A DNA stretch of 64,000 nucleotides, taken from Anaerolineales bacterium. Lineage in GTDB: Bacteria; Chloroflexota; Anaerolineae; Anaerolineales; UBA11579. The translations under genes were made by a program, and so were the position numbers. This document shows, one piece after another, positions 1 through 44,712 of the stretch (position 1 is its first letter; every line of letters starts with the position of its first letter). The notes beneath the pieces were generated by a model. The model was not told where the DNA came from. It ran no database searches and was given only the letters and a program-made list of their open reading frames with translations. Location: contig JAFGDK010000009.1 in the NCBI GenBank assembly GCA_016932165.1, positions 5,437 through 69,436 on the forward strand, given 5' to 3'.

Positions 1-223
1 GCTGATGTTCCATCTGAATCAGAATGGAGTGGCTGTGTCGATGGGGTCAGCCTGCACCTCACAGTCTATAGAGCCTTCCCATGTGCTGCTGGCGATGGGC
101 TTAACAGAGAAACAGATTGAGGGGACGCTTCGTATATCAATTGGTGAATTCACGACCCGCGAGGAAATCCACCAATTTGGTGAGATCCTATATAATGTAT
201 TGCCAGGATCATCTATGGCTTGA
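1..223 (+). CDS. cysteine desulfurase (NifS/IscS-like), C-terminal fragment; 5' end outside window
   Basis: The frame is open to the left edge. The tail ...MGSACTSQSIEPSHVLLAMGL...GTLRISIG... resembles the active-site Cys loop and C-terminus of class V PLP cysteine desulfurases. Confidence 0.7.
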   Translation, partial: LMFHLNQNGVAVSMGSACTSQSIEPSHVLLAMGLTEKQIEGTLRISIGEFTTREEIHQFGEILYNVLPGSSMA

Positions 224-7075: not shown

Positions 7076-8038
7076 ATGATGCAATATGTGTTTGGTCCGG
7101 TCCCGTCGCGTCGGCTAGGACAATCTCTTGGGATTGATACGATTCCTTTAAAAACATGCAATTGGAATTGTGTTTACTGTCAATTGGGGCGCACAAAGCC
7201 ACTTTGTAATCAGCGGAAAGATTACATCCCAATCCATGAGATCCTTGCCCAGATTAAAACTGCGCTAAAACGGCATACCGCCGGGGAGATTGATTGGATT
7301 ACCTTTGTGGGGTCTGGTGAGCCAACCTTACATGCTGGGATCGGTTATCTGATCAAAGAGGTTCGATCACTGACGAACATTCCAGTTGCGGTGATTACGA
7401 ATGGGTCGCTGTTGTTCCTCAAGTCTGTGAGAGATGCGCTGCGCCAGGCAGATGCTGTCCTGCCTGGTCTGGATGCGGGAACGCCTGAGCTGTATAAAAA
7501 GCTCAATCGTCCCCATCCAGATATCACCTTTGACCGGTATATTGGCGGGTTGGTTGAGTTCAGGCAAGAGTATCGCGGAAAACTTTGGGTGGAAGTCATG
7601 TTGGTGAAAGATCTCAATGATACTGCTAAAGCTCTGGAGAGGATTGCCTGCCAGATTGAAAAGATCCGCCCTGATAAAATCCATATTGGGTTGCCCACCC
7701 GGCCTCCTGCTGAGAAGTGGGTTTTCCCGCCAACAGAGGAGGGTGTGTTGCGGGCGATTGAGATTTTAGGGAACGTGGCAGAAGTTGCATCACCGTTGGA
7801 GGGAAAGTTTGATATCCGAGAGGCTGACAACATCGTGGACGCAATCCTCGCGATTATCATACGGCATCCGATGAGTGAGGAACAATTATTGGAATCCCTC
7901 GCAGATTTTCCTGAAGAAAAACAGGCTGAAATCCTGGAAAACTTGCAAGCCTCGCCCCATGCACAGGTGATTCAACGATATGGCCGGCGGTTTTGGTGCG
8001 GGGACCTTGCGTTTTTCCCGGATTCAAAAAATCACTAA
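7076..8038 (+). CDS. radical SAM protein, unknown substrate
   Basis: CX3CX2C cluster motif (CNWNCVYC) after the conserved GPVPSRRLG..SLGI N-terminus. Lies 13 nt after usp. Confidence 0.85.
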   Translation: MMQYVFGPVPSRRLGQSLGIDTIPLKTCNWNCVYCQLGRTKPLCNQRKDYIPIHEILAQIKTALKRHTAGEIDWITFVGSGEPTLHAGIGYLIKEVRSLTNIPVAVITNGSLLFLKSVRDALRQADAVLPGLDAGTPELYKKLNRPHPDITFDRYIGGLVEFRQEYRGKLWVEVMLVKDLNDTAKALERIACQIEKIRPDKIHIGLPTRPPAEKWVFPPTEEGVLRAIEILGNVAEVASPLEGKFDIREADNIVDAILAIIIRHPMSEEQLLESLADFPEEKQAEILENLQASPHAQVIQRYGRRFWCGDLAFFPDSKNH

Positions 8039-11903: not shown

Positions 11904-12101
11904 ATGTGTATGGTTGCAGTTTATCTAGATGAAGAGAAGATTTTGGAGAATGTCATGTTGGTGGAACCGACCCCAGAGGGTGTGCGGCTGGTGGCGATGT
12001 TCGAGCCAACCCAGATCGTTCCAGCGGTGATTCGGCAGATCGATTTGATGGAAAATAAAATCCACTTGACGCATATTGATAAAGGAGCAGACCAGCAATG
12101 A
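11904..12101 (+). CDS. cooT: CooT-family nickel-binding protein
   Basis: 65 aa starting MCM... (Cys2). The pattern of beta-strand residues resembles Rhodospirillum CooT from memory. AGGAG lies 8 nt upstream. Confidence 0.7.
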   Translation: MCMVAVYLDEEKILENVMLVEPTPEGVRLVAMFEPTQIVPAVIRQIDLMENKIHLTHIDKGADQQ

Positions 12102-12334
12102 ACGAGACCGATAAACTCAGGGTACTCATCCCTCATTGGATTGAGCACAATCACGAACATGCCGAGGAGTTCAGCCAGTGGGCTGAAAAGGCGGCAAATG
12201 CATCTGGAGATCTGCTGGCTGCGGTTGAAGCCATCAAAGCTGCCAATCAAGCGCTTGCTGCCGGGCTGGAAAAATTAGGTGGAGGTCTTCCTCATCAGCA
12301 TCAGCATCACCATCATCATCATGATGATGATTAA
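12098..12334 (+). CDS. small helical protein with poly-His/Asp C-terminal tail (CooJ-like metal chaperone candidate)
   Basis: 78 aa ending HQHQHHHHHHDDD, with HWIEHNHEH near the N-terminus. Its start overlaps the cooT stop (ATGA), implying translational coupling. Confidence 0.55.
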   Translation: MNETDKLRVLIPHWIEHNHEHAEEFSQWAEKAANASGDLLAAVEAIKAANQALAAGLEKLGGGLPHQHQHHHHHHDDD

Positions 12335-12625
12335 ACATACCATCTTTTCCAGCGCAAAAAGAATCTAATCTAGAAAATTCTCTTGAAGGAATGCAACCAG
12401 TAAGTGACCATCGAGGACACATTCTGGCTGATTAAGGTCTCAAGGATGAATCCAGATCAATTTCTTCAGGAACCCGGTTGCAATTGTTTAGACAATTTTC
12501 TTGCTAAATTTGTTTTGTGCTAAAATGTGATTGTTGGATCGGCGGTCGCAGTGGACAATATTGAGTGTACTGCGGCGTGGGATGTAGATCCCGCGAAAAG
12601 TGCCGCTCTATCCTTCCGCCGACCC

Positions 12626-13513: not shown

Positions 13514-13522
13514 GTGCACACG

Positions 13523-16303
13523 ATGACCAAGTTAACCTTTATTGTCAATGGAGAACACAAACAGGTTGAGATTGAACCTGGTGAGATGCTGGCGGAGGTG
13601 CTGCGCAAGCGTCTGGGATTGACGGGTACCAAGATCAGCTGTGATGAACTGGAATGCGGGGTGTGCACTGTGCTGGTTGATGATTTGCCAGTTTTGTCAT
13701 GCAATTATCCAGCAATCAAAGCGAATGGTAAGCATGTCACCACAATCGAGGGGCTGGCATCTGATGGGAACCTGCACCCACTTCAAGAGGCTTTTGTCAA
13801 AAAAGGGGCAACCCAATGCGGTTTTTGCACACCCGGTCAGATCATGACAGCCGCGGCGCTGCTCAAGGAGCATCCAGATCCCACAATTGACGATATTGAA
13901 TACGCCTTGAATGACACCCTTTGCCGATGCGGGGCCTATCCGGCGATTGTGGATGCAATTCGGGCGGCATCTGACAAGATCAACCACGGTACGCCAATTG
14001 AATATCCCCAATATGAGTTTGAGGGCGGTCACAAAGTTATCGGCCAGGTGGTAAAGCGGCCTGAAGCGGTTGACAAAGTGACAGGTGCGGCAATCTATAC
14101 AGATGACATCAGCTTCCCGGATATGTTGATCGGGGCTACCCTGCGGGCCGGGATTCCGCATGGACGGGTAACCAGGCTGGATACCACCGCGGCCGAAAAG
14201 CTGCCCGGTGTGCACGCTGTTCTGACCGCGGCGGATATCCCAGGCCGGGTCAATCATGGTTTGGTGATCCAAGACTGGCCGGCGCTGGTTGGGGTGGGCG
14301 AAAAGGTTCGTTATGTCGGCGATGCCATCGCCATCGTTGCCGCTGATACTGAAGATATCGCCAGGCAGGCGCTTGACCTGATCGAAGTGGAGTTTGAGCA
14401 GCTGCCGGTTGTTACAGACCCGGTGGAGGCCAAACTTGACGGCGCTCCTCTGGTTCATCAGGAAGGCAATTTACTAAAGCATATCAAAGTGGACAAAGGG
14501 GATATTGCCGCTGGATTTGAGCAAGCTGACGTGATCATGGAAGACATCTATACCATGCCCACCTATGAACATGCCTTCATGGAGCCGGAGTGCAGCGTAG
14601 CCCGGGTGACGGAGGATGGCAGAATTGAACTGTGGGTCGGTTCGCAGATCCCTTACGCAGACCGTGAACAGGTGGCGGCTGCTTTGGATTTGCAGCCGCA
14701 AGAGGTGCGGGTGCGCAGCCCATTGACCGGCGGCGGTTTTGGCGGGAAAGAAGATATCGCCGGTCAGATCCACGCGGCCATGCTTGCCAGGTCAACTGGC
14801 AGACCGGTGAAGATTTTGTACAGCCGGCACGAGAGCCTGCTGGTCCATCCAAAACGCCACGCCACCAGAATCAAGGTGACCCTGGGTTTGAAGAAAGACG
14901 GCAGATTGACAGCCGCGCAGACTGAATTGTTTGGTGATACCGGCGCTTATGCTTCCTTGGGCACCAAGGTGATGGGCCGGGCGACAACCCATTCCACTGG
15001 ACCGTATATCGTTCCAAATGTAAAGATTGACTGTTACGCTATGTATACCAATAATCCCCCGGCAGGGGCCTTCCGAGGGTTTGGAGCCTTGCAGGCCTGC
15101 CATGCGATCGAATGCATGATGGATCAAGCCGCAGAGAGGCTGGGGCTGGACCCGGTAGAATTCAGGCGGATGAATGCTTTGCGTGAAAACTCGATCACCA
15201 ACACCGGCCAGCACCTGACTGAGAGCGTGGGCTTACTGGAGTGCATTGATCGGGTTGAAGCTGAGATGTTGCAATCCACTAATGGGGCCGCCCCGTTTGC
15301 TGCCAGAGAAGTGAAGGGACAACCCAATAAACGCCGGGCTTGGGGCTTTGCGGTGGCCTTCAAGAATACCGGGCTGGGTGAAGGCGCGCCCGATAAAGCT
15401 ACCGCTGAAGTTGAATTGTTAGACGGAGGTATTGCTGAGGCGCGGATTTCCTCTGCTGAGATCGGCCAAGGGTTGGTGACTGTGCTGCAAATGATCACCT
15501 CTCAAGAATTGGGCCTGCCCCTAGACCAGGTTCGGGTGCTGCTCTCGGATACAGACCTGACCCCTGACGGCGGACCGACGACTGGCTCCCGGCAGACCTA
15601 TATCTCCGGGAATGCGGTCCGGCATGCGGCCAACTCTCTGCGGGAGCAAATGGCAGCTACACTGGCTGAAAAGTTCGATGTGCCTCCTGATGAAATTAAA
15701 TTTATCGAAGGTCTGGCCCAGGTGAGAGAGGAAATGGTACCGGTTACAGATGTGGTTGCGCTGATGAAGCAGGAGGGGAAAGAGCCAAAGGTTGTGTATG
15801 AATACTGGGCGCCAAAGACCTTCCCGTTGGGTGAAGAGGGAGACAAACACTTTGCCTATTCCTTCGCCGCACAGGCAACCGAGATCGAACTGGACCTGGA
15901 TACCGGGGAGGTGGCAGTGATCCGCACGATTGGGGCCACAGACGTTGGCAAAGTGATCAATCCGCTTGGCTTCCAGGGTCAGGTGGAAGGCGGAACTATC
16001 ATGGGGATCGGCCATGCGCTGACAGAGGAATTCATTATTGAGGATGGCATCATTTTCACAGATTACCTGGCCCGATACCGGATGCCCTCTATTCACCATA
16101 CACCCCGAGAGATCAAGGTGATTGCGGTGGAACACCCGACTAGTGAAGGGCCGTATGGCGGGAAGGGGGTGGGGGAGATCTCAACCATGCCGGTGCCGCC
16201 TTCGATTGTGAATGCCATCTACAACGCCTGCGGAATTCGAATAAAAACTTTGCCGATCGATCAGGATTGGCTTGCATTAGAATTGAGGAAGAAAGCAAAA
16301 TAA
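13523..16303 (+). CDS. molybdenum hydroxylase, fused [2Fe-2S] small subunit and molybdopterin-binding large subunit (xanthine dehydrogenase family)
   Basis: Two 2Fe-2S motifs (CDELECGVCTV; QCGFCTPG...CRCGAY) followed by aldehyde-oxidase/XDH hammerhead and MoCo domains with a GAFRGFG loop. The ATG at 13523 has AGGTG upstream. Confidence 0.9.
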   Translation: MTKLTFIVNGEHKQVEIEPGEMLAEVLRKRLGLTGTKISCDELECGVCTVLVDDLPVLSCNYPAIKANGKHVTTIEGLASDGNLHPLQEAFVKKGATQCGFCTPGQIMTAAALLKEHPDPTIDDIEYALNDTLCRCGAYPAIVDAIRAASDKINHGTPIEYPQYEFEGGHKVIGQVVKRPEAVDKVTGAAIYTDDISFPDMLIGATLRAGIPHGRVTRLDTTAAEKLPGVHAVLTAADIPGRVNHGLVIQDWPALVGVGEKVRYVGDAIAIVAADTEDIARQALDLIEVEFEQLPVVTDPVEAKLDGAPLVHQEGNLLKHIKVDKGDIAAGFEQADVIMEDIYTMPTYEHAFMEPECSVARVTEDGRIELWVGSQIPYADREQVAAALDLQPQEVRVRSPLTGGGFGGKEDIAGQIHAAMLARSTGRPVKILYSRHESLLVHPKRHATRIKVTLGLKKDGRLTAAQTELFGDTGAYASLGTKVMGRATTHSTGPYIVPNVKIDCYAMYTNNPPAGAFRGFGALQACHAIECMMDQAAERLGLDPVEFRRMNALRENSITNTGQHLTESVGLLECIDRVEAEMLQSTNGAAPFAAREVKGQPNKRRAWGFAVAFKNTGLGEGAPDKATAEVELLDGGIAEARISSAEIGQGLVTVLQMITSQELGLPLDQVRVLLSDTDLTPDGGPTTGSRQTYISGNAVRHAANSLREQMAATLAEKFDVPPDEIKFIEGLAQVREEMVPVTDVVALMKQEGKEPKVVYEYWAPKTFPLGEEGDKHFAYSFAAQATEIELDLDTGEVAVIRTIGATDVGKVINPLGFQGQVEGGTIMGIGHALTEEFIIEDGIIFTDYLARYRMPSIHHTPREIKVIAVEHPTSEGPYGGKGVGEISTMPVPPSIVNAIYNACGIRIKTLPIDQDWLALELRKKAK

Positions 16304-41103: not shown

Positions 41104-41132
41104 ACAAACGGCCCAGTTTTGGGGCCGTTTGT
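41104..41132. terminator. hairpin terminator between the small hydrophobic gene and the peroxiredoxin-like gene
   Basis: ACAAACGGCCC-loop-GGGCCGTTTGT. The T-run is strong on the plus strand and weak on the minus strand (GATTTAATT). Confidence 0.45.
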
Positions 41133-41162: not shown

Positions 41163-41333
41163 TCAGAAGATGGCGATCAGGATGCCGATGGGGAGCAGGA
41201 TCAGGCCGATGATCAGGGCGACGACCACGATCCCAATAATCCCACCCACCAGGCCGAGTACAGCTCCGACAATCCCGACGACCAGACCGATGATCCCGGT
41301 GATCAGCCCGACAATTGCTTTGATTAAGCCCAT
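41163..41333 (-). CDS. 56-aa Gly/Ile/Val-rich hydrophobic mini-protein
   Basis: MGLIKAIVGLITGIIGLVVGIVGAVLGLVGGIIGIVVVALIIGLILLPIGILIAIF. GGAGG lies 6 nt upstream of this ATG. The longer 89-aa track ORF lacks an SD. Confidence 0.5.
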   Translation of the reverse strand: MGLIKAIVGLITGIIGLVVGIVGAVLGLVGGIIGIVVVALIIGLILLPIGILIAIF

Positions 41334-41497
41334 GATATACCTCCGTTTACAAAAAATCTCTGTGTAAGGTTTTTTGGGGCAAACCTCACATTTTTGGCGT
41401 GTTTCTATATGCATATACGGAGAAGGCGGCAAAAGGTTGCATAACCAAAATGGAGATTTATTTTTATATCAAGATCTTGAAACCACGGTACGATTGG

Positions 41498-41560: not shown

Positions 41561-43351
41561 TTATCCCAGCCGGGCGCGTTCCTCCTCGGCCACTTTGGGA
41601 TCGAGCTTCTGGTACAACGGGTGGGGTTGGAGGAATGGTTTTCCGGCTTCCAGTTTGACAGGTTGCCAGCGCCCGGAGGCATCGGCGGGTTTGTAGTGCA
41701 AAGTGATATGCTCGCCCTGTGCATCGGTCACTGGCTGGGTGAACTGTTCGCCGAACAGCGGCTGGCGATAGCCAAGATAGGTATGCAGCTGCTCGCTGGA
41801 GAAAGGCAGGAAGGGGGCAAAAAGTGTTTTGAGGTGGTCGATGGCCTGCAAGGCAGTATAGACGATCGTAGCGGCGCGCTGTTTATCCGTCTTAACCGCA
41901 GACCAAGGGGCGGCCTCATCCAAATATTTATTGACCTCCGAGGCCAGTTCCATTACCGCCAGTAAAGCGGCGCGCAGCCTGACCTTGTCGAGCAAATCGC
42001 CGACAGTCTCGAATCCTCTTTCTACACGATCCACAAGAGCCTGGTCTTCAGCGGTGAGTTCCCCAGGGGTGGGGATGTGACCCTCCCAGTGTTTGTGGGC
42101 AAAGGAAAGCACCCGGTTGGCGAGGTTGCCCCAGGTGGCGACCAACTGGGAGTTATTGCGGGTGACGAAATCGTCCCAGTCCCAGTTGGCGTCTTTGGTT
42201 TCAGGCATGTTGATCGTCAGGTAGAAGCGCAGGGCATCTGGTTGGTAGCGGGAGAGAAAATCCAGCCCCCACACCGCCCAGCCGCGGCTGCCAGAGAGCT
42301 TCTGGTCTTGCATATTTAGAAATTCGTTGGCAGGGACATCGTAGGGCAGGGTCAGTTGGGTGTTTTCTTTTTCTTCAAAGATTTTGCCAAACCATTCACC
42401 AGCCCCGGCCAACTGTGCCGGCCACATCACGGCGTGGAAGGGGATGTTGTCTTTCCCGATGAAGTAGTAAGCCTGGGCATCGGGGTTGTACCACCAATTG
42501 TGCCAGGCATCTTTATCGCCATTGAGCTGGGCCCACTCGATGGCCGCAGAGAGATACCCGATCACAGCCTCAAACCACACGTACAGGCACTTGCCTTTCC
42601 AGCCTTCCACCGGCACAGGGATGCCCCAGTCCAGGTCTCGGGTGATGGCGCGCCCGCGCAGAGGATTAGCCTTGATCTGCCCGAGGGATTGGCGCAGCAC
42701 ATTGGGGCGGATGCGTTCTTCACGCGCTTCCAGGAATTCAATGATCCCGGGTTCCAGCTTGGACAGGTCCAGGTAGAAGTGTTCGGTTTCTTTCAATACC
42801 GGGGTCGAGCCGTCGTTCTTTGAGCGCGGTTCGATCAACAAGTTGGCCTCAAGCAGATTGCCGCAGTTGTCGCACTGGTCGCCGCGGGCCTGGTCGTAGC
42901 CGCACAGGTAGCAGGTGCCTTCCACATACCTGTCGGGCAGGAAGCGCCCCTCACTCTCTGAGTACCAGTGACTCTGGGTCTCTGTGTAGAGGTATCCGTT
43001 CTCTTTAAGGGCCAGGAAAATGCTCTGGGCCACCTTGGTGTGGTTCTCGGTGTGGGTGGAGGTGAACAGGTCGTAATGCAGGCCGAGTTTCTGAAAGAGA
43101 TCCAGAAAACCAGCATGGTAGCGTTGGTATACTTCCTCTGGTGAAATCCCTTCGGCATCAGACTTGACGGTGATTGGCGTGCCGTGGGCATCGGAGCCAG
43201 AGACCATCAGCACATGATTGCCCTTCAACCGGTGGTAACGGGCAAAGATATCGGCTGGCAAATATGAACCGGTGATGTTACCGACATGGATCTCAGAGCT
43301 GGCATACGGCCAGGCGACTGCCACCAGGATGTGTTTGGGATCATTTGTCAT
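41561..43351 (-). CDS. metG: methionine--tRNA ligase
   Basis: HIGH-type motif (SSEIHVGNITG), zinc knuckle (CYLCG...CDNCG), KMSKS-type motif (KLSGSRG) and anticodon-binding domain. GAGGAG lies 8 nt upstream. Confidence 0.95.
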   Translation of the reverse strand: MTNDPKHILVAVAWPYASSEIHVGNITGSYLPADIFARYHRLKGNHVLMVSGSDAHGTPITVKSDAEGISPEEVYQRYHAGFLDLFQKLGLHYDLFTSTHTENHTKVAQSIFLALKENGYLYTETQSHWYSESEGRFLPDRYVEGTCYLCGYDQARGDQCDNCGNLLEANLLIEPRSKNDGSTPVLKETEHFYLDLSKLEPGIIEFLEAREERIRPNVLRQSLGQIKANPLRGRAITRDLDWGIPVPVEGWKGKCLYVWFEAVIGYLSAAIEWAQLNGDKDAWHNWWYNPDAQAYYFIGKDNIPFHAVMWPAQLAGAGEWFGKIFEEKENTQLTLPYDVPANEFLNMQDQKLSGSRGWAVWGLDFLSRYQPDALRFYLTINMPETKDANWDWDDFVTRNNSQLVATWGNLANRVLSFAHKHWEGHIPTPGELTAEDQALVDRVERGFETVGDLLDKVRLRAALLAVMELASEVNKYLDEAAPWSAVKTDKQRAATIVYTALQAIDHLKTLFAPFLPFSSEQLHTYLGYRQPLFGEQFTQPVTDAQGEHITLHYKPADASGRWQPVKLEAGKPFLQPHPLYQKLDPKVAEEERARLG

Positions 43352-43430
43352 TGTCTTGTCTCCTCAGAATGATTGCGATGTATTTTAGTTGTTTAGGCCA
43401 GTTTCGTCTATAAATGAGATTGGTATATCT

Positions 43431-43458
43431 AAAATAAAAAACTGCCCGTTTGGGCAGC
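43431..43458 (-). terminator. candidate attenuator terminator in the metG leader
   Basis: On the minus strand: (G)CTGCCC-AAAC-GGGCAG followed by TTTTTTATTTT. It lies about 80 nt upstream of the metG ATG and 24 nt after the leader ORF stop. Confidence 0.55.
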
Positions 43459-43481
43459 TTCTAAATACCGGCAGGAGTGAT

Positions 43482-43598
43482 CTACCGGATACGGGCTGCC
43501 CGGGTGTGGGTTTGCATTTCCATCTCCATCATCATCATGGAGAAGATCAGCATCATGGCAGTCGCCTCAATATCGATCAGGTATAACGCTGTTTCCAT
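43482..43598 (-). CDS. candidate Met-rich leader peptide (38 codons) upstream of metG
   Basis: METALYLIDIEATAMMLIFSMMMMEMEMQTHTRAARIR has 8 internal ATG codons, including 4 consecutive. It sits between a promoter-like element and the attenuator hairpin. Confidence 0.5.
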   Translation of the reverse strand: METALYLIDIEATAMMLIFSMMMMEMEMQTHTRAARIR

Positions 43599-43604
43599 GT
43601 AGAT

Positions 43605-43633
43605 AGTTTACGGTTAAGTGATGTCCCTGTCAA
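43605..43633 (-). promoter_or_regulatory. sigma70-like promoter for the metG leader
   Basis: On the minus strand: TTGACA - 17 nt - TAAACT. The leader ATG begins 6 nt after the -10, so the leader mRNA would be leaderless or nearly so. Confidence 0.4.
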
Positions 43634-43674
43634 GCTGGCGGGGTATAATTCAGGGCATTGGAGAATAAAAAAAC

Positions 43675-44712
43675 ATGCCAACATCACATCGCATATTCAA
43701 CCGGCGGGATTTCATAAAATTAGCCGCTTTATCCCTCGCCGGACTCGGCCTTGAGCCGCTGATGACTGCCTGCCGCCGGCCGGATGAGATGCCTCTCCCC
43801 ACACCGACTCCCAAACCGGTGAGTACGATCGTCCCAACGCACACCAACACCCCGGAACCGGAAGCCGTTAGCCCGACAGCCACCTCCGCGCCTACCGAGA
43901 CCCCAGCCCCGGCCCTGAGCGCGCGCCAGCAGCAACGGTTGGCATTGATCGACCGCTACGGGGTGGCGAGCAAAGCCCTTCCGCTGGAATTCCATGGCGA
44001 CCATTATTGGTTTTATGACGGCGCTTACTCGATGGATCCGCCGACCTTTGTCTGGATGATGGAATGGTTCCAAAAAAATGATGTCTGGGCGGTCAGCGCT
44101 GATGAGTTAATTGGCTACCTGGACGGCACGCTCCAGCTTCCCGCCCGCAGCGTGATCCTGACCACTGATTCGGGCGCGGCGTCGATGGATTCGATCGACC
44201 GGATGGTGCCGGTACTCCAGGATACCGGGATGCATTTCATCAGCCTGATCTGGACGATGCAGATGGAAGCCCACGAAACAGCCGCCTGCCCGGATAACCT
44301 GTGCTGGGACAAGTTTAATTGGGCGATGGAGTCGGGGACTTTCTCAATTGGTACGCACAGCGAATATCACCTGCCGCTGGCGGATCATGACCAGGATTTT
44401 GGCTTCCGGGACCTCTCCCAATCAGTGAGCGAGATCAAGGCCAATATGGGGGTAGATGCCCAGGTCCTCTCCTGGCCGAACGAGTCCTGCCCAATGTGGA
44501 TGGATACGCTGCTGCCCACCTTGGGGATCAAAGCAGCGTTTGGCGGGCGCTCCCGTCCGCTGGGAGATTGTGCGGTATACCCGAATGACAATCTGCGATA
44601 CTGCCTGCCGCGTTTGTTCCCCCCTAACCGGCAGGACCGCCTCTCCGGCCGCCCGCCAGGGATGACTCTGGAAGAGATGGCTGTCCTTTACATGGATGGC
44701 TTTGAGGGATAG
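43675..44712 (+). CDS. polysaccharide deacetylase-family (NodB-like) protein with Tat signal and lipobox
   Basis: RRDFIKLAALSLAGLGLEPLMTAC (twin-Arg plus Cys), a Pro/Thr-rich linker, and NodB-like motifs (ILTTDSG; GTHSEYH). Confidence 0.7.
   Translation: MPTSHRIFNRRDFIKLAALSLAGLGLEPLMTACRRPDEMPLPTPTPKPVSTIVPTHTNTPEPEAVSPTATSAPTETPAPALSARQQQRLALIDRYGVASKALPLEFHGDHYWFYDGAYSMDPPTFVWMMEWFQKNDVWAVSADELIGYLDGTLQLPARSVILTTDSGAASMDSIDRMVPVLQDTGMHFISLIWTMQMEAHETAACPDNLCWDKFNWAMESGTFSIGTHSEYHLPLADHDQDFGFRDLSQSVSEIKANMGVDAQVLSWPNESCPMWMDTLLPTLGIKAAFGGRSRPLGDCAVYPNDNLRYCLPRLFPPNRQDRLSGRPPGMTLEEMAVLYMDGFEG

Follow-up and report, generated by a model that had tools for sequence, protein, structure and literature searches.

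Introduction

In the attenuators of the trp, his and leu operons and of pheM-pheST, the regulatory codons match the amino acid or the synthetase that is controlled. The question raised by the locus described here, in the genome of an Anaerolineales bacterium, is whether a short open reading frame (ORF) rich in Met codons upstream of metG, the gene for methionyl-tRNA synthetase (MetRS), governs metG in the same manner. An earlier note on the 64,000-nucleotide stretch of DNA analysed (hereafter the window) had proposed a Met-leader attenuator, a claim which comparative genomics and modelling support, short of proof. The note had also been unaware of any description of such a leader for metG; likewise, none was described in the literature searched, the reach of which did not extend to Table S9 of PMC4007540 or to PMID 20198868.

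Organisation of the metG leader

The regulated gene in the proposed model lies at 41561..43351 on the minus strand and encodes a methionine--tRNA ligase of 596 amino acids (Pfam tRNA-synt_1g, 2.9e-138; NCBIfam TIGR00398, 495 bits, cutoff 336); its ATG at 43351 is preceded by a Shine-Dalgarno (SD) sequence, GAGGAG, at 43365..43360. The order of elements read in the earlier note, namely promoter, Met-rich ORF, hairpin with U-tract and metG SD and ATG, holds base for base on the minus strand. The promoter, TTGACA-17-TAAACT at 43633..43605, was recovered by a consensus scan with 10/12 matches and consists of a -35 hexamer (43633..43628) and a -10 hexamer (43610..43605) separated by a 17-nt spacer. 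As the -10 box lies only 6 nt 5' of the leader ATG, the transcript is implied to start at or adjoining the AUG, and would hence be leaderless.

The leader ORF (43598..43482, minus strand; METALYLIDIEATAMMLIFSMMMMEMEMQTHTRAARIR) runs from an ATG at 43598 to a UAG stop at 43484..43482 and has the 38 codons and eight internal AUGs, four of them consecutive, that had been attributed to it. Two of the AUGs form codons 15-16 (43556..43551, minus strand) and the others, at codons 21-24, 26 and 28, belong to the putative regulatory core of codons 21-28 (43515..43538, minus strand), in which four AUGs are followed by GAG, AUG, GAA and AUG. These codons are cognate to metG, and the ORF is predicted to be positioned for translation. 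By internal Met count it comes top of the 521 ORFs in the window that begin with ATG and span 15-80 codons. The peptide has no match in Pfam or NCBIfam. A second Met-rich short ORF, at 12275..12343 on the minus strand, was rejected as the antisense of a His-tail coding sequence.

Between the ORF and metG, a terminator scan located a Rho-independent terminator (43431..43461, minus strand) with an extended stem at 43461..43438, CUGCCC-AAAC-GGGCAG, followed by UUUUUUAUUUU ending at 43431. Its 5' arm (region 3; GAAGCUGCCC) occupies 43461..43452 and is followed by the loop AAAC, the 3' arm (region 4; GGGCAGUUUU) at 43447..43438 and the U-tract to 43431, all on the minus strand. In the hairpin, CUGCCC follows the ORF stop after 24 nt, the spacing first reported for it, and the energy is -14.9 kcal/mol. 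Inside the ORF, codons 33-35 contain GGGCAGC (region 2; 43501..43495, minus strand). Its first base is 16 nt downstream of that of the last Met codon, and 10 nt separate its end from the UAG. This heptamer does copy the terminator 3' arm, as had been recognised, and can pair with GCUGCCC of the 5' arm (-14.8 to -16.0 kcal/mol by RNAduplex), so providing the 5' strand of an alternative anti-terminator which uses the terminator 5' arm.

Folding of the leader, suggested previously as a check, gave the terminator as the minimum free energy (MFE) structure and the GGGCAGC:GCUGCCC anti-terminator as the centroid (z = -2.7); both the MFE and centroid predictions contain a small hairpin, CCGGUAG-AUCACUC-CUGCCGG (43468..43488, minus strand), which holds the stop codon and sits within the anti-terminator helix. 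For any particular 7-mer, 0.004 chance occurrences are expected in 60 positions, and this rarity, taken together with the top rank for Met count and the folding result, points to an architecture beyond chance. One feature of the locus counts against the attenuator reading: between the terminator and metG there is a second, weaker promoter-like site, TAGACG-17-TAAAAT (43382..43410, minus strand; 9/12 matches, from the consensus scan only), a candidate of uncertain status which may be a basal metG promoter.

Conservation of the leader in related genomes

The succession of promoter, Met-rich short ORF and terminator ahead of metG was found in 69 non-redundant Anaerolineae/Chloroflexota metG loci, which come from two independent collections. 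Lack of the short ORF or its Met run in relatives had been named in the earlier note as a result that would tell against its proposal; the Met-rich ORF, together with the terminator, is kept in these 69, with the latter at the same position, 24-230 nt upstream of metG, in every one (69/69). Linkage to metG is also retained across divergent lineages, despite differences in the other neighbouring genes. Approximately 20 related Chloroflexota metG loci are without the element, which counts against the attenuator reading, and in Actinomycetota loci a terminator upstream of metG is absent. The leader ORFs of the relatives comprise 17-40 codons with 2-8 internal Met codons; that several have just two again counts against. 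Of the peptide sequence only the Met pattern is conserved, along with a segment whose conservation is at the level of the RNA; in one locus (L012) the stop codon sits 5' of this segment.

The promoter geometry is likewise a property of the family. TTGNNN-16..18-TANNNT-5..9-ATG occurs in 40/69 leaders (1.5 expected by chance) and TANNNT 5-9 nt before the leader ATG in 54/69 (11.4 expected); in 48 of these 54 the spacing from -10 box to ATG is 6-7 nt, and an SD-like sequence was seen in only seven of the 69. When trinucleotide enrichment was computed without any ORF information, no trinucleotide in the 130 nt 5' of the terminators was more enriched across the family than ATG (2.78x; 216 vs 141.7 +/- 7.6 in dinucleotide shuffles, ~10 SD), and 188 of the 216 ATGs (87%) shared a single phase, where the null gives 118 +/- 4.4. 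Downstream of the ATG defined by promoter geometry the distribution by frame is 166:17:14, with frame 0 dominant in 41/42 loci (p = 8e-19). This supports the attenuator reading by indicating that the Met codons of the family are read as codons and, since the cluster of Met codons shares the frame of the promoter-predicted ATG, it also indicates a leaderless leader ORF. Promoter geometry and the predicted transcription start place the ORF at the 5' end of the transcript without an SD, and on these grounds the mRNA it would be translated from is almost certainly leaderless; this is a refinement to the attenuator interpretation first put forward.

Covariation in the stems, another of the checks proposed at the outset, was found: across the family, changes in region 2 are matched by changes in the terminator 5' arm in comparisons uncorrected for phylogeny. 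There are four sequence classes, and from one to another the anti-terminator strand varies in step with the terminator: in L004 and L006 the three strands (anti-terminator, 5' arm, 3' arm) read GGCAGCC, GGCTGCC and GGCAGCC, and in L085 they read GGCGGCC, GGCCGCC and GGCGGTC. In alignment A1, 78% of cells are paired, compared with 35-45% when the partner is slid, and double-sided changes number 21 against 11.8 +/- 2.9 in shuffles, a value reached in 0/500 shuffles by statistics that ignore phylogeny. At column 113 of the shared arm, no mismatch occurs with either partner (Fisher p ~0.003 and 0.002), a three-way covariation which also ignores phylogeny, and the comparison of cognate with permuted arm pairing by RNAduplex gave z = -3.3. 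Whole-leader MFE folding had proved too noisy for locating the partner of the terminator arm and was replaced by RNAduplex on the post-Met segment; RNAalifold on a MAFFT alignment recovered only four terminator pairs, the classes being out of register with one another.

As to geometry, the distance from the last Met codon to the start of the anti-terminator has a median of 16 nt (IQR 13-21), which puts the anti-terminator immediately beyond the stretch that a stalled ribosome would cover; stop codons fall at or just past the anti-terminator, the terminator starts ~22 nt after the stop, and the energies of the anti-terminator and terminator helices are balanced at -16.0 and -16.4 kcal/mol. The class D leaders (13/69) do not fit a simple 2:3 / 3:4 scheme, another point against the attenuator reading.

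Searches for other regulatory elements

No T-box had been visible to the earlier reader, and searches with Rfam covariance models bear this out, as the T-box riboswitch model (RF00230) gave no hit at E <= 10 in 43000..44000, and a scan of the entire window and of 19 relatives that have no leader likewise yielded nothing reaching the gathering threshold. Neither a SAM riboswitch nor any other Met-related riboswitch of any Rfam family was detected in the window, the sole sub-threshold hit being RNAI (16.5 bits vs a gathering value of 47), and the Rfam Trp, His, Leu and Thr leaders have no match there. A search of the window and all 160 loci for a leader ORF with a terminator specific to other amino acids returned only the metG leaders plus one variant, L139, whilst the only other class I aminoacyl-tRNA synthetase sequence in the flanks of the loci was a C-terminal fragment of MetRS in L018.

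Modelling of ribosome position

The equilibrium probability of the terminator, calculated with a ribosome mask at every codon, barely discriminates between positions (>0.9 in most leaders wherever the mask is placed; p = 0.03), which counts against the attenuator reading, and the analysis was therefore moved to the nascent transcript without the terminator 3' arm. Given that the terminator wins at equilibrium wherever the ribosome sits, the switch would, according to these calculations, have to be kinetic and co-transcriptional. In the nascent transcript, moving the modelled A-site from Met codons to the stop weakened capture of the terminator 5' arm in 41 leaders and strengthened it in 11 (p = 3e-6). 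For the window, capture energy was -9 to -12 kcal/mol through codon 29 and approximately -4 kcal/mol from codon 30, the last Met being codon 28; the anti-terminator thus survives a modelled ribosome at any codon up to 29 and is broken up once the ribosome is at codon 30 or beyond, and family-wide the step comes 2-5 codons past the last Met. With the exception of class D, a stalled ribosome in the model spares region 2 and a ribosome at the end of the ORF masks it. Two further results count against the attenuator reading: in class A, to which the window belongs, the contrast between Met and stop is mixed on average (-6.6 vs -5.9 kcal/mol), and with a ribosome on the stop codon of the window the residual capture is still -7.1 kcal/mol.

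Untranslated nascent RNA behaves differently among the classes. In the window it captures the arm much as the Met-stalled state does (-10.1 vs -10.5 kcal/mol), so that a 1:2 protector is not evident there and the untranslated RNA appears, in the model, to default to the anti-terminator. In class B the corresponding values are -6.8 vs -8.6 and in class C -5.4 vs -9.3 kcal/mol, which suggests a partial protector in these two classes, as in classical attenuators.

Proposed mechanism and alternative explanations

Taken as a whole, the comparative sequence evidence and the modelling make it probable that the leader is a ribosome-mediated transcription attenuator which matches metG expression to the amount of charged elongator tRNA-Met available. 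We infer the following course of events, from where transcription begins and the translation of the ORF to stalling and, finally, termination or read-through. Transcription would start at or adjoining the AUG of the 38-codon leader ORF, which would be translated without an SD. Were Met-tRNA(Met) scarce, a ribosome would stall on the AUGs at codons 15-28 with its footprint stopping short of GGGCAGC, leaving region 2 free to pair with GCUGCCC of region 3 once the latter leaves the polymerase; the terminator hairpin would then form too late and RNA polymerase would read into metG. With plentiful Met-tRNA(Met), the ribosome would pass codon 29 and reach the stop, covering region 2, so that regions 3 and 4 would form the terminator and the transcript would end at ~43431.

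A related but less likely possibility is that the leader is a translation-completion checkpoint dedicated to MetRS, in which a single ORF reports on both products of the enzyme and failure of either would raise metG transcription. A leaderless leader would make initiation dependent on fMet-tRNA(fMet), and termination would then need both successful initiation and successful decoding of Met by elongator Met-tRNA(Met). The apparent default of the untranslated window RNA to the anti-terminator is in keeping with this reading.

It is unlikely that the same parts form a general sensor of translation competence, in which any failure to complete the leader ORF would relieve attenuation, be it a global slow-down or a failure of leaderless initiation with its need for fMet-tRNA(fMet), itself a MetRS product, and in which the Met codons would only add sensitivity. 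The similar capture by untranslated and Met-stalled RNA in the window and the apparently leaderless ORF are what such a sensor would lead one to expect, but the poorer capture by untranslated RNA in classes B and C is not, and the strong conservation of in-frame AUGs argues for Met decoding as the selected signal.

Far less probable is an ATG-rich segment acting as an untranslated structured RNA, bound by a protein or small molecule which controls the terminator; MetRS itself could for instance read CAU anticodon-like motifs, as ThrRS reads the thrS operator. CAUG is indeed self-complementary, and a CCAUG-N3-AUGG hairpin occurs in 14/69 leaders. However, neither a conserved hairpin nor a mimic of the CAU anticodon is supported within the Met cluster, which has no excess of folding (z ~0, p = 0.75) and in which just 35% of the Met codons are preceded by C; the phase coherence of the ATGs, their agreement in frame with the promoter-defined AUG, the consistent position of the stops at or just past the anti-terminator and the lack of any Rfam match also speak against such an RNA.

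M-x-M motifs are known from copper-binding proteins, and this together with the promoter-like site between terminator and metG could be accommodated by a functional Met-rich micropeptide (metal-binding, for example) with its own terminator, metG being transcribed separately from a downstream site and its linkage incidental, but such a peptide is highly improbable in view of the linkage maintained in 69 loci of divergent lineages, a sequence that is unconserved beyond the Met pattern and the RNA-level segment (which the stop in L012 precedes) and unmatched in Pfam and NCBIfam, and an ORF 3' end which covaries with the terminator arm.

Discussion

An attenuator of the kind proposed for metG would add Met and methionyl-tRNA synthetase to the small set of known or predicted leader-peptide attenuation pairs, and would extend this form of control to the Chloroflexota, a largely uncultured and little-studied phylum. 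As the ORF is apparently leaderless and AUG would serve as both start and sensor codon, the metG leader is a natural test case for attenuation without an SD and for feedback on MetRS by initiator and elongator Met-tRNA. With ~70 examples in four co-varying classes, it could also be curated as an RNA or leader family and serve the annotation of metagenome-assembled genomes, where the short ORF otherwise goes unnoticed or is labelled a hypothetical protein. If other synthetase genes of the Anaerolineae have similar leaderless leaders, these could functionally replace T-boxes in this lineage.

In Firmicutes, T-boxes are found upstream of metS/metG and other aminoacyl-tRNA synthetase genes, where the RNA itself recognises uncharged tRNA by means of a specifier codon and the T-box sequence, with no translation involved. 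The outcome, read-through of a terminator when the cognate tRNA is uncharged, would be the same for the metG leader; the model proposed here, unlike direct sensing of tRNA, needs translation, and the T-box is undetected in the window and in the 19 leader-less relatives.

Closer in design are leaderless short ORFs from two other groups. The mycobacterial polycysteine ORFs share with the metG leader a leaderless start, a run of codons for a single amino acid and the sensing of supply by ribosome stalling, with control of downstream genes as the result, but in their case the stalled ribosome is reported to block a structure which sequesters a downstream ribosome-binding site (10.1101/834739). Their output is accordingly translational, whereas the output element of the metG leader is a canonical intrinsic terminator, in place of ribosome-binding site sequestration, and its target is a synthetase. 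In Deinococcus deserti, leaderless leader peptides have been predicted and transcription attenuation proposed, with cysS and trpEGD shown and 14 listed (PMC4007540). The leaderless design is the same; D. deserti belongs to another phylum, and that study offered no comparative or covariation analysis of an anti-terminator.

The trp, his, leu and thr attenuators present the same succession of regulatory codons, region 2, stop, regions 3:4 and U-tract, with an anti-terminator which approximately copies the terminator 3' arm. The metG leader would work like the amino-acid leaders of Rfam but lies outside those families: it would control a synthetase instead of a biosynthetic operon, it is probably leaderless, and in the window it has no evident 1:2 protector or pause hairpin. 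A precedent for leader-peptide control of a synthetase, cited as such in PMC1262725, is pheM-pheST of Escherichia coli. There the synthetase gene also stands behind a short ORF rich in codons for its own amino acid, with mutually exclusive anti-terminator and terminator hairpins and feedback on the charged cognate tRNA. There is no sequence similarity between the two, the one being a Phe system, led by an SD, from the Gammaproteobacteria and the other an apparently leaderless Met system from the Chloroflexota. What further sets the metG leader apart from pheM-pheST is that AUG would be both start and regulatory codon, and that MetRS also charges the initiator tRNA.

Organization of the metG leader

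The region upstream of metG, read on the minus strand, contains the promoter, Met-rich ORF, hairpin and metG that the earlier note had listed. A -35 hexamer TTGACA (43633..43628) is separated by 17 nt from a -10 hexamer TAAACT (43610..43605), which lies 6 nt before the ATG (43598) of a 38-codon leader ORF (43598..43482; product METALYLIDIEATAMMLIFSMMMMEMEMQTHTRAARIR). Internal AUGs occupy codons 15, 16, 21-24, 26 and 28, and the ORF ranks top for internal Met count among the 521 short ATG-initiated ORFs of the window. The anti-terminator strand GGGCAGC lies in codons 33-35 (43501..43495), with 10 nt between its end and the UAG stop. The terminator CUGCCC-AAAC-GGGCAG, with an extended stem (43461..43438), is found 24 nt 3' of this stop and is followed by the tract UUUUUUAUUUU, ending at 43431. 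The ATG of metG (43351, SD GAGGAG) opens a 596-aa ORF identified as methionine--tRNA ligase (Pfam tRNA-synt_1g, 2.9e-138; TIGR00398, 495 bits, cutoff 336). Both of the alternative structures proposed earlier appear on folding the leader: the minimum-free-energy structure forms the terminator, the centroid the GGGCAGC:GCUGCCC anti-terminator.

Between the leader terminator and metG there is a promoter-like TAGACG-17-TAAAAT (43382..43410, minus strand, 9/12 matches), a site which could permit basal metG transcription bypassing the attenuator. Downstream of metG lies an extremely hydrophobic, Gly/Ile/Leu/Val-rich ORF of 89 aa (41163..41432, minus strand) with no Pfam match, after which comes a perfect 11-bp hairpin (41104..41132) with a T-run on the plus strand only. 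Elsewhere, a gene of the molybdopterin/2Fe-2S xanthine-dehydrogenase type (13514..16303) is preceded by two small neighbouring ORFs (11904..12334, plus strand), the first of 65 aa and the second of 78 aa; the second ends ...HQHQHHHHHHDDD, possibly a metal-binding tail. A Met-rich short ORF at 12275..12343 (minus strand) was rejected as spurious, being the antisense of this His tail.

Distribution among relatives

The window derives from an Anaerolineales bacterium (Chloroflexota). For comparison, 80 metG loci from reference genomes and 80 from metagenomes (given L numbers) were sampled, the nearest reference genome having a MetRS 82% identical to that of the window. A strong intrinsic terminator between the upstream gene and metG was found in most Anaerolineae-type loci, always with a short Met-rich ORF upstream of it (e.g., MLDILVIFSLAAGLMLMSMMMEINPRAWAAARR; MKFKLEDLMVPMTVAMQMEMSSRAWIAR; MKIQTSQAMPMGMPSVFRDRRRLSLA), and in none of the fetched Actinomycetota/Gaiellaceae metG loci. 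The arrangement of Met-rich ORF and terminator is kept in a total of 69 non-redundant leaders, plus L083. It is absent from ~20 related Chloroflexota metG loci, where no T-box or other Rfam element stands in its place.

Two relatives without the Met leader carry cobalamin riboswitches on the strand opposite metG, a short way upstream of it (L091, 813..960 (-), 60.6 bits; L039, 2608..2770 (-), 43.8 bits). At a third locus, L139, a Met-rich leader MINCNGSPMCMMQRLRQDRRRRLPRAW and class C terminator (classes are described below) begin at about position 149, ~1 kb upstream of metG, with a 271-aa gene in between; in that lineage both genes may be under the leader's control as one unit. In L018, ~2.4 kb past the real metG, an ORF fragment (about 7222..7730) resembles the last ~60 MetRS residues (...LFGEQYAEDV...EEERARLGR*) and is possibly a duplicated gene fragment.

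Evidence for reading of the Met codons

Two tests of Met-codon reading were carried out independently of ORF picking. None of the 64 trinucleotides is as enriched as ATG (2.78x) in the 130 nt 5' of each terminator: 216 copies were counted, where dinucleotide-preserving shuffles gave 141.7 +/- 7.6, and 188 of the 216 share one phase (null 118 +/- 4.4). When the start codon was instead placed by promoter geometry alone (TTGNNN-16..18-TANNNT-5..9-ATG), giving ORFs of 17-40 codons, downstream ATGs were distributed 166:17:14 by frame and the dominant frame was 0 in 41 of 42 loci (p = 8e-19).

A -10 box lies 5-9 nt 5' of the ATG in 54/69 leaders (11.4 expected), at 6 or 7 nt in 48 of the 54, and the full promoter arrangement is found in 40/69 (1.5 expected). 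As this geometry is far above chance and only 7/69 leaders have an SD-like sequence, the mRNA from which the leader ORF is translated is most likely leaderless. In three relatives (L002, L004, L006) the leader ATG is instead preceded by a 25-30 nt 5' UTR that contains an SD-like GAGG or GAAG, so leaderless and SD-led versions of the attenuator coexist among close relatives.

Alternative pairing and covariation

The terminators sort into four sequence classes, A-D. In class A, to which the window leader belongs, the terminator 5' arm is GCUGCC(C) or GGCCGCC and the anti-terminator strand at the ORF 3' end GGGCAGC(C), GGCAGCC or GGCGGCC; in class B these are GGGCUGUCC and UGGAWAGCACGUU or GGACAGCC, and in class C CCGUCUGUCC and GGACAGACGG, whilst the class D 5' arm is CCGCCAGCCUCGGCUGGCGG. 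In classes A-C the segment at the ORF 3' end nearly copies the terminator 3' arm and is therefore complementary to the 5' arm. The apparent R-A-W conservation near the C-terminus of the peptide is a reflection of this RNA motif (CGCGCCUGG...); in L012 the leader stop codon precedes this motif.

A compensatory change is directly visible between relatives, the anti-terminator, 5' arm and 3' arm being GGCAGCC, GGCTGCC and GGCAGCC in L004 and L006 but GGCGGCC, GGCCGCC and GGCGGTC in L085. In a structure-agnostic MAFFT alignment (A1) the anti-terminator helix occupies columns 29-37:107-115, where, ignoring kinship, 78% of cells are paired against 35-45% with the partner slid by 1-3 columns. The covariation sought between anti-terminator strand and terminator arm was found, with 21 double-sided changes against 11.8 +/- 2.9 on shuffling (0/500 shuffles reach 21; kinship ignored), and A-U alternates with G-C or C-G at two positions. 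Column 113, in the shared strand, is C only if both its partners, column 31 (anti-terminator) and column 128 (terminator), are G; with U in column 113, the partners are either A or G (Fisher tests, p about 0.003 and 0.002, kinship ignored). Swapping terminator arms among loci weakened pairing (z = -3.3, kinship again ignored).

Geometry and ribosome modelling

Across the 69 leaders the median distance from the first base of the last Met codon to the start of the anti-terminator is 16 nt (IQR 13-21). The anti-terminator ends around the stop codon, with about 22 nt from stop to terminator, and the two helices are energetically balanced (medians -16.0 and -16.4 kcal/mol). With a ribosome mask (A-site -18 to +12 nt) placed at each codon, the equilibrium terminator probability was >0.9 almost everywhere and did not discriminate. 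Classical attenuators likewise do not discriminate at equilibrium; in them the anti-terminator owes its effect to being made first.

The nascent transcript ending before the terminator 3' arm was therefore analysed. In 41 leaders, capture of the 5' arm was stronger when the ribosome sat on Met codons than when it sat on the stop, and in 11 it was weaker (p = 3e-6), with energies of -8.6 against -4.7 kcal/mol in class B and -9.3 against -4.2 in class C; in class A the average contrast is weak. For the window, capture is -9 to -12 kcal/mol at every A-site position through codon 29; from codon 30 onward it weakens to about -4 to -5, with -7.1 at the stop, the last Met being codon 28. Family-wide, the profile drops 2-5 codons beyond the last Met codon, so that in the model the Met codons are the last positions at which a stalled ribosome leaves the anti-terminator free. 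The untranslated window leader, with a modelled capture of -10.1 kcal/mol, looks like it would read through; for classes B and C, capture of the 5' arm is poorer in the untranslated than in the stalled state.

Mechanism and alternative explanations

The best-supported explanation is transcription attenuation of the classical, ribosome-mediated kind, with AUG codons acting as the sensor of charged elongator tRNA-Met and setting the level of metG transcription. The attenuator parts, conservation, in-frame Met codons, covariation and spacing, all shown here, support this proposal of the earlier note, with a weak contrast in class A and a misfit in class D; the steps that we infer are transcription start, leader translation, ribosome stalling and the termination decision.

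The class D leaders are a weakness, as they do not fit the simple scheme in which the 5' arm pairs with either the anti-terminator strand (2:3) or the 3' arm (3:4). These leaders (e.g., L008, L013, L103), situated no more than about 200 nt upstream of metG, have only 2-3 Met codons. Inside the ORF they contain a hairpin, GGAGCCGAGGCUCC, with an apex complementary to that of the terminator, AGCCUCGGCU; these features suggest a different switching geometry.

The leader may sense translation competence in general, which would be a variant of the attenuator and not a real competitor to it. The frame coherence of the ATGs, a Met cluster without fold excess and an unremarkable frequency of C preceding AUG speak against an untranslated structured RNA or an anticodon mimic binding MetRS. 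A functional Met-rich micropeptide is likewise disfavoured, as the peptide is unconserved beyond its Met pattern, the ORF 3' end covaries with the terminator and linkage to metG persists across lineages.

Comparison with known attenuators

The leader would work like the pheM-pheST attenuator of E. coli and those of trp, his, leu and thr. The principle is long established and all the evidence here computational, and what is added is a clean, well-conserved regulatory family worth curating and testing. Rfam leader families gave no match to it, and literature searches found no description of a leader-peptide attenuator in Chloroflexota.

Among synthetase genes, classical attenuators have been predicted upstream of Streptomyces trpS and leuS (PMC1262725) and a His leader upstream of hisS paralogues in bacilli (PMC2965389). 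For Deinococcus deserti, leaderless leader peptides have been predicted upstream of synthetase genes, with cysS shown (PMC4007540), and the polycysteine leaderless ORFs of mycobacteria are reported to act on translation (10.1101/834739). No Met leader for metG is described in the searchable papers, a scope that excludes Table S9 of PMC4007540 and Lopatovskaya et al. (2010). Against these systems, the metG leader is new in the amino acid sensed and in the synthetase gene regulated, and its start is apparently leaderless.
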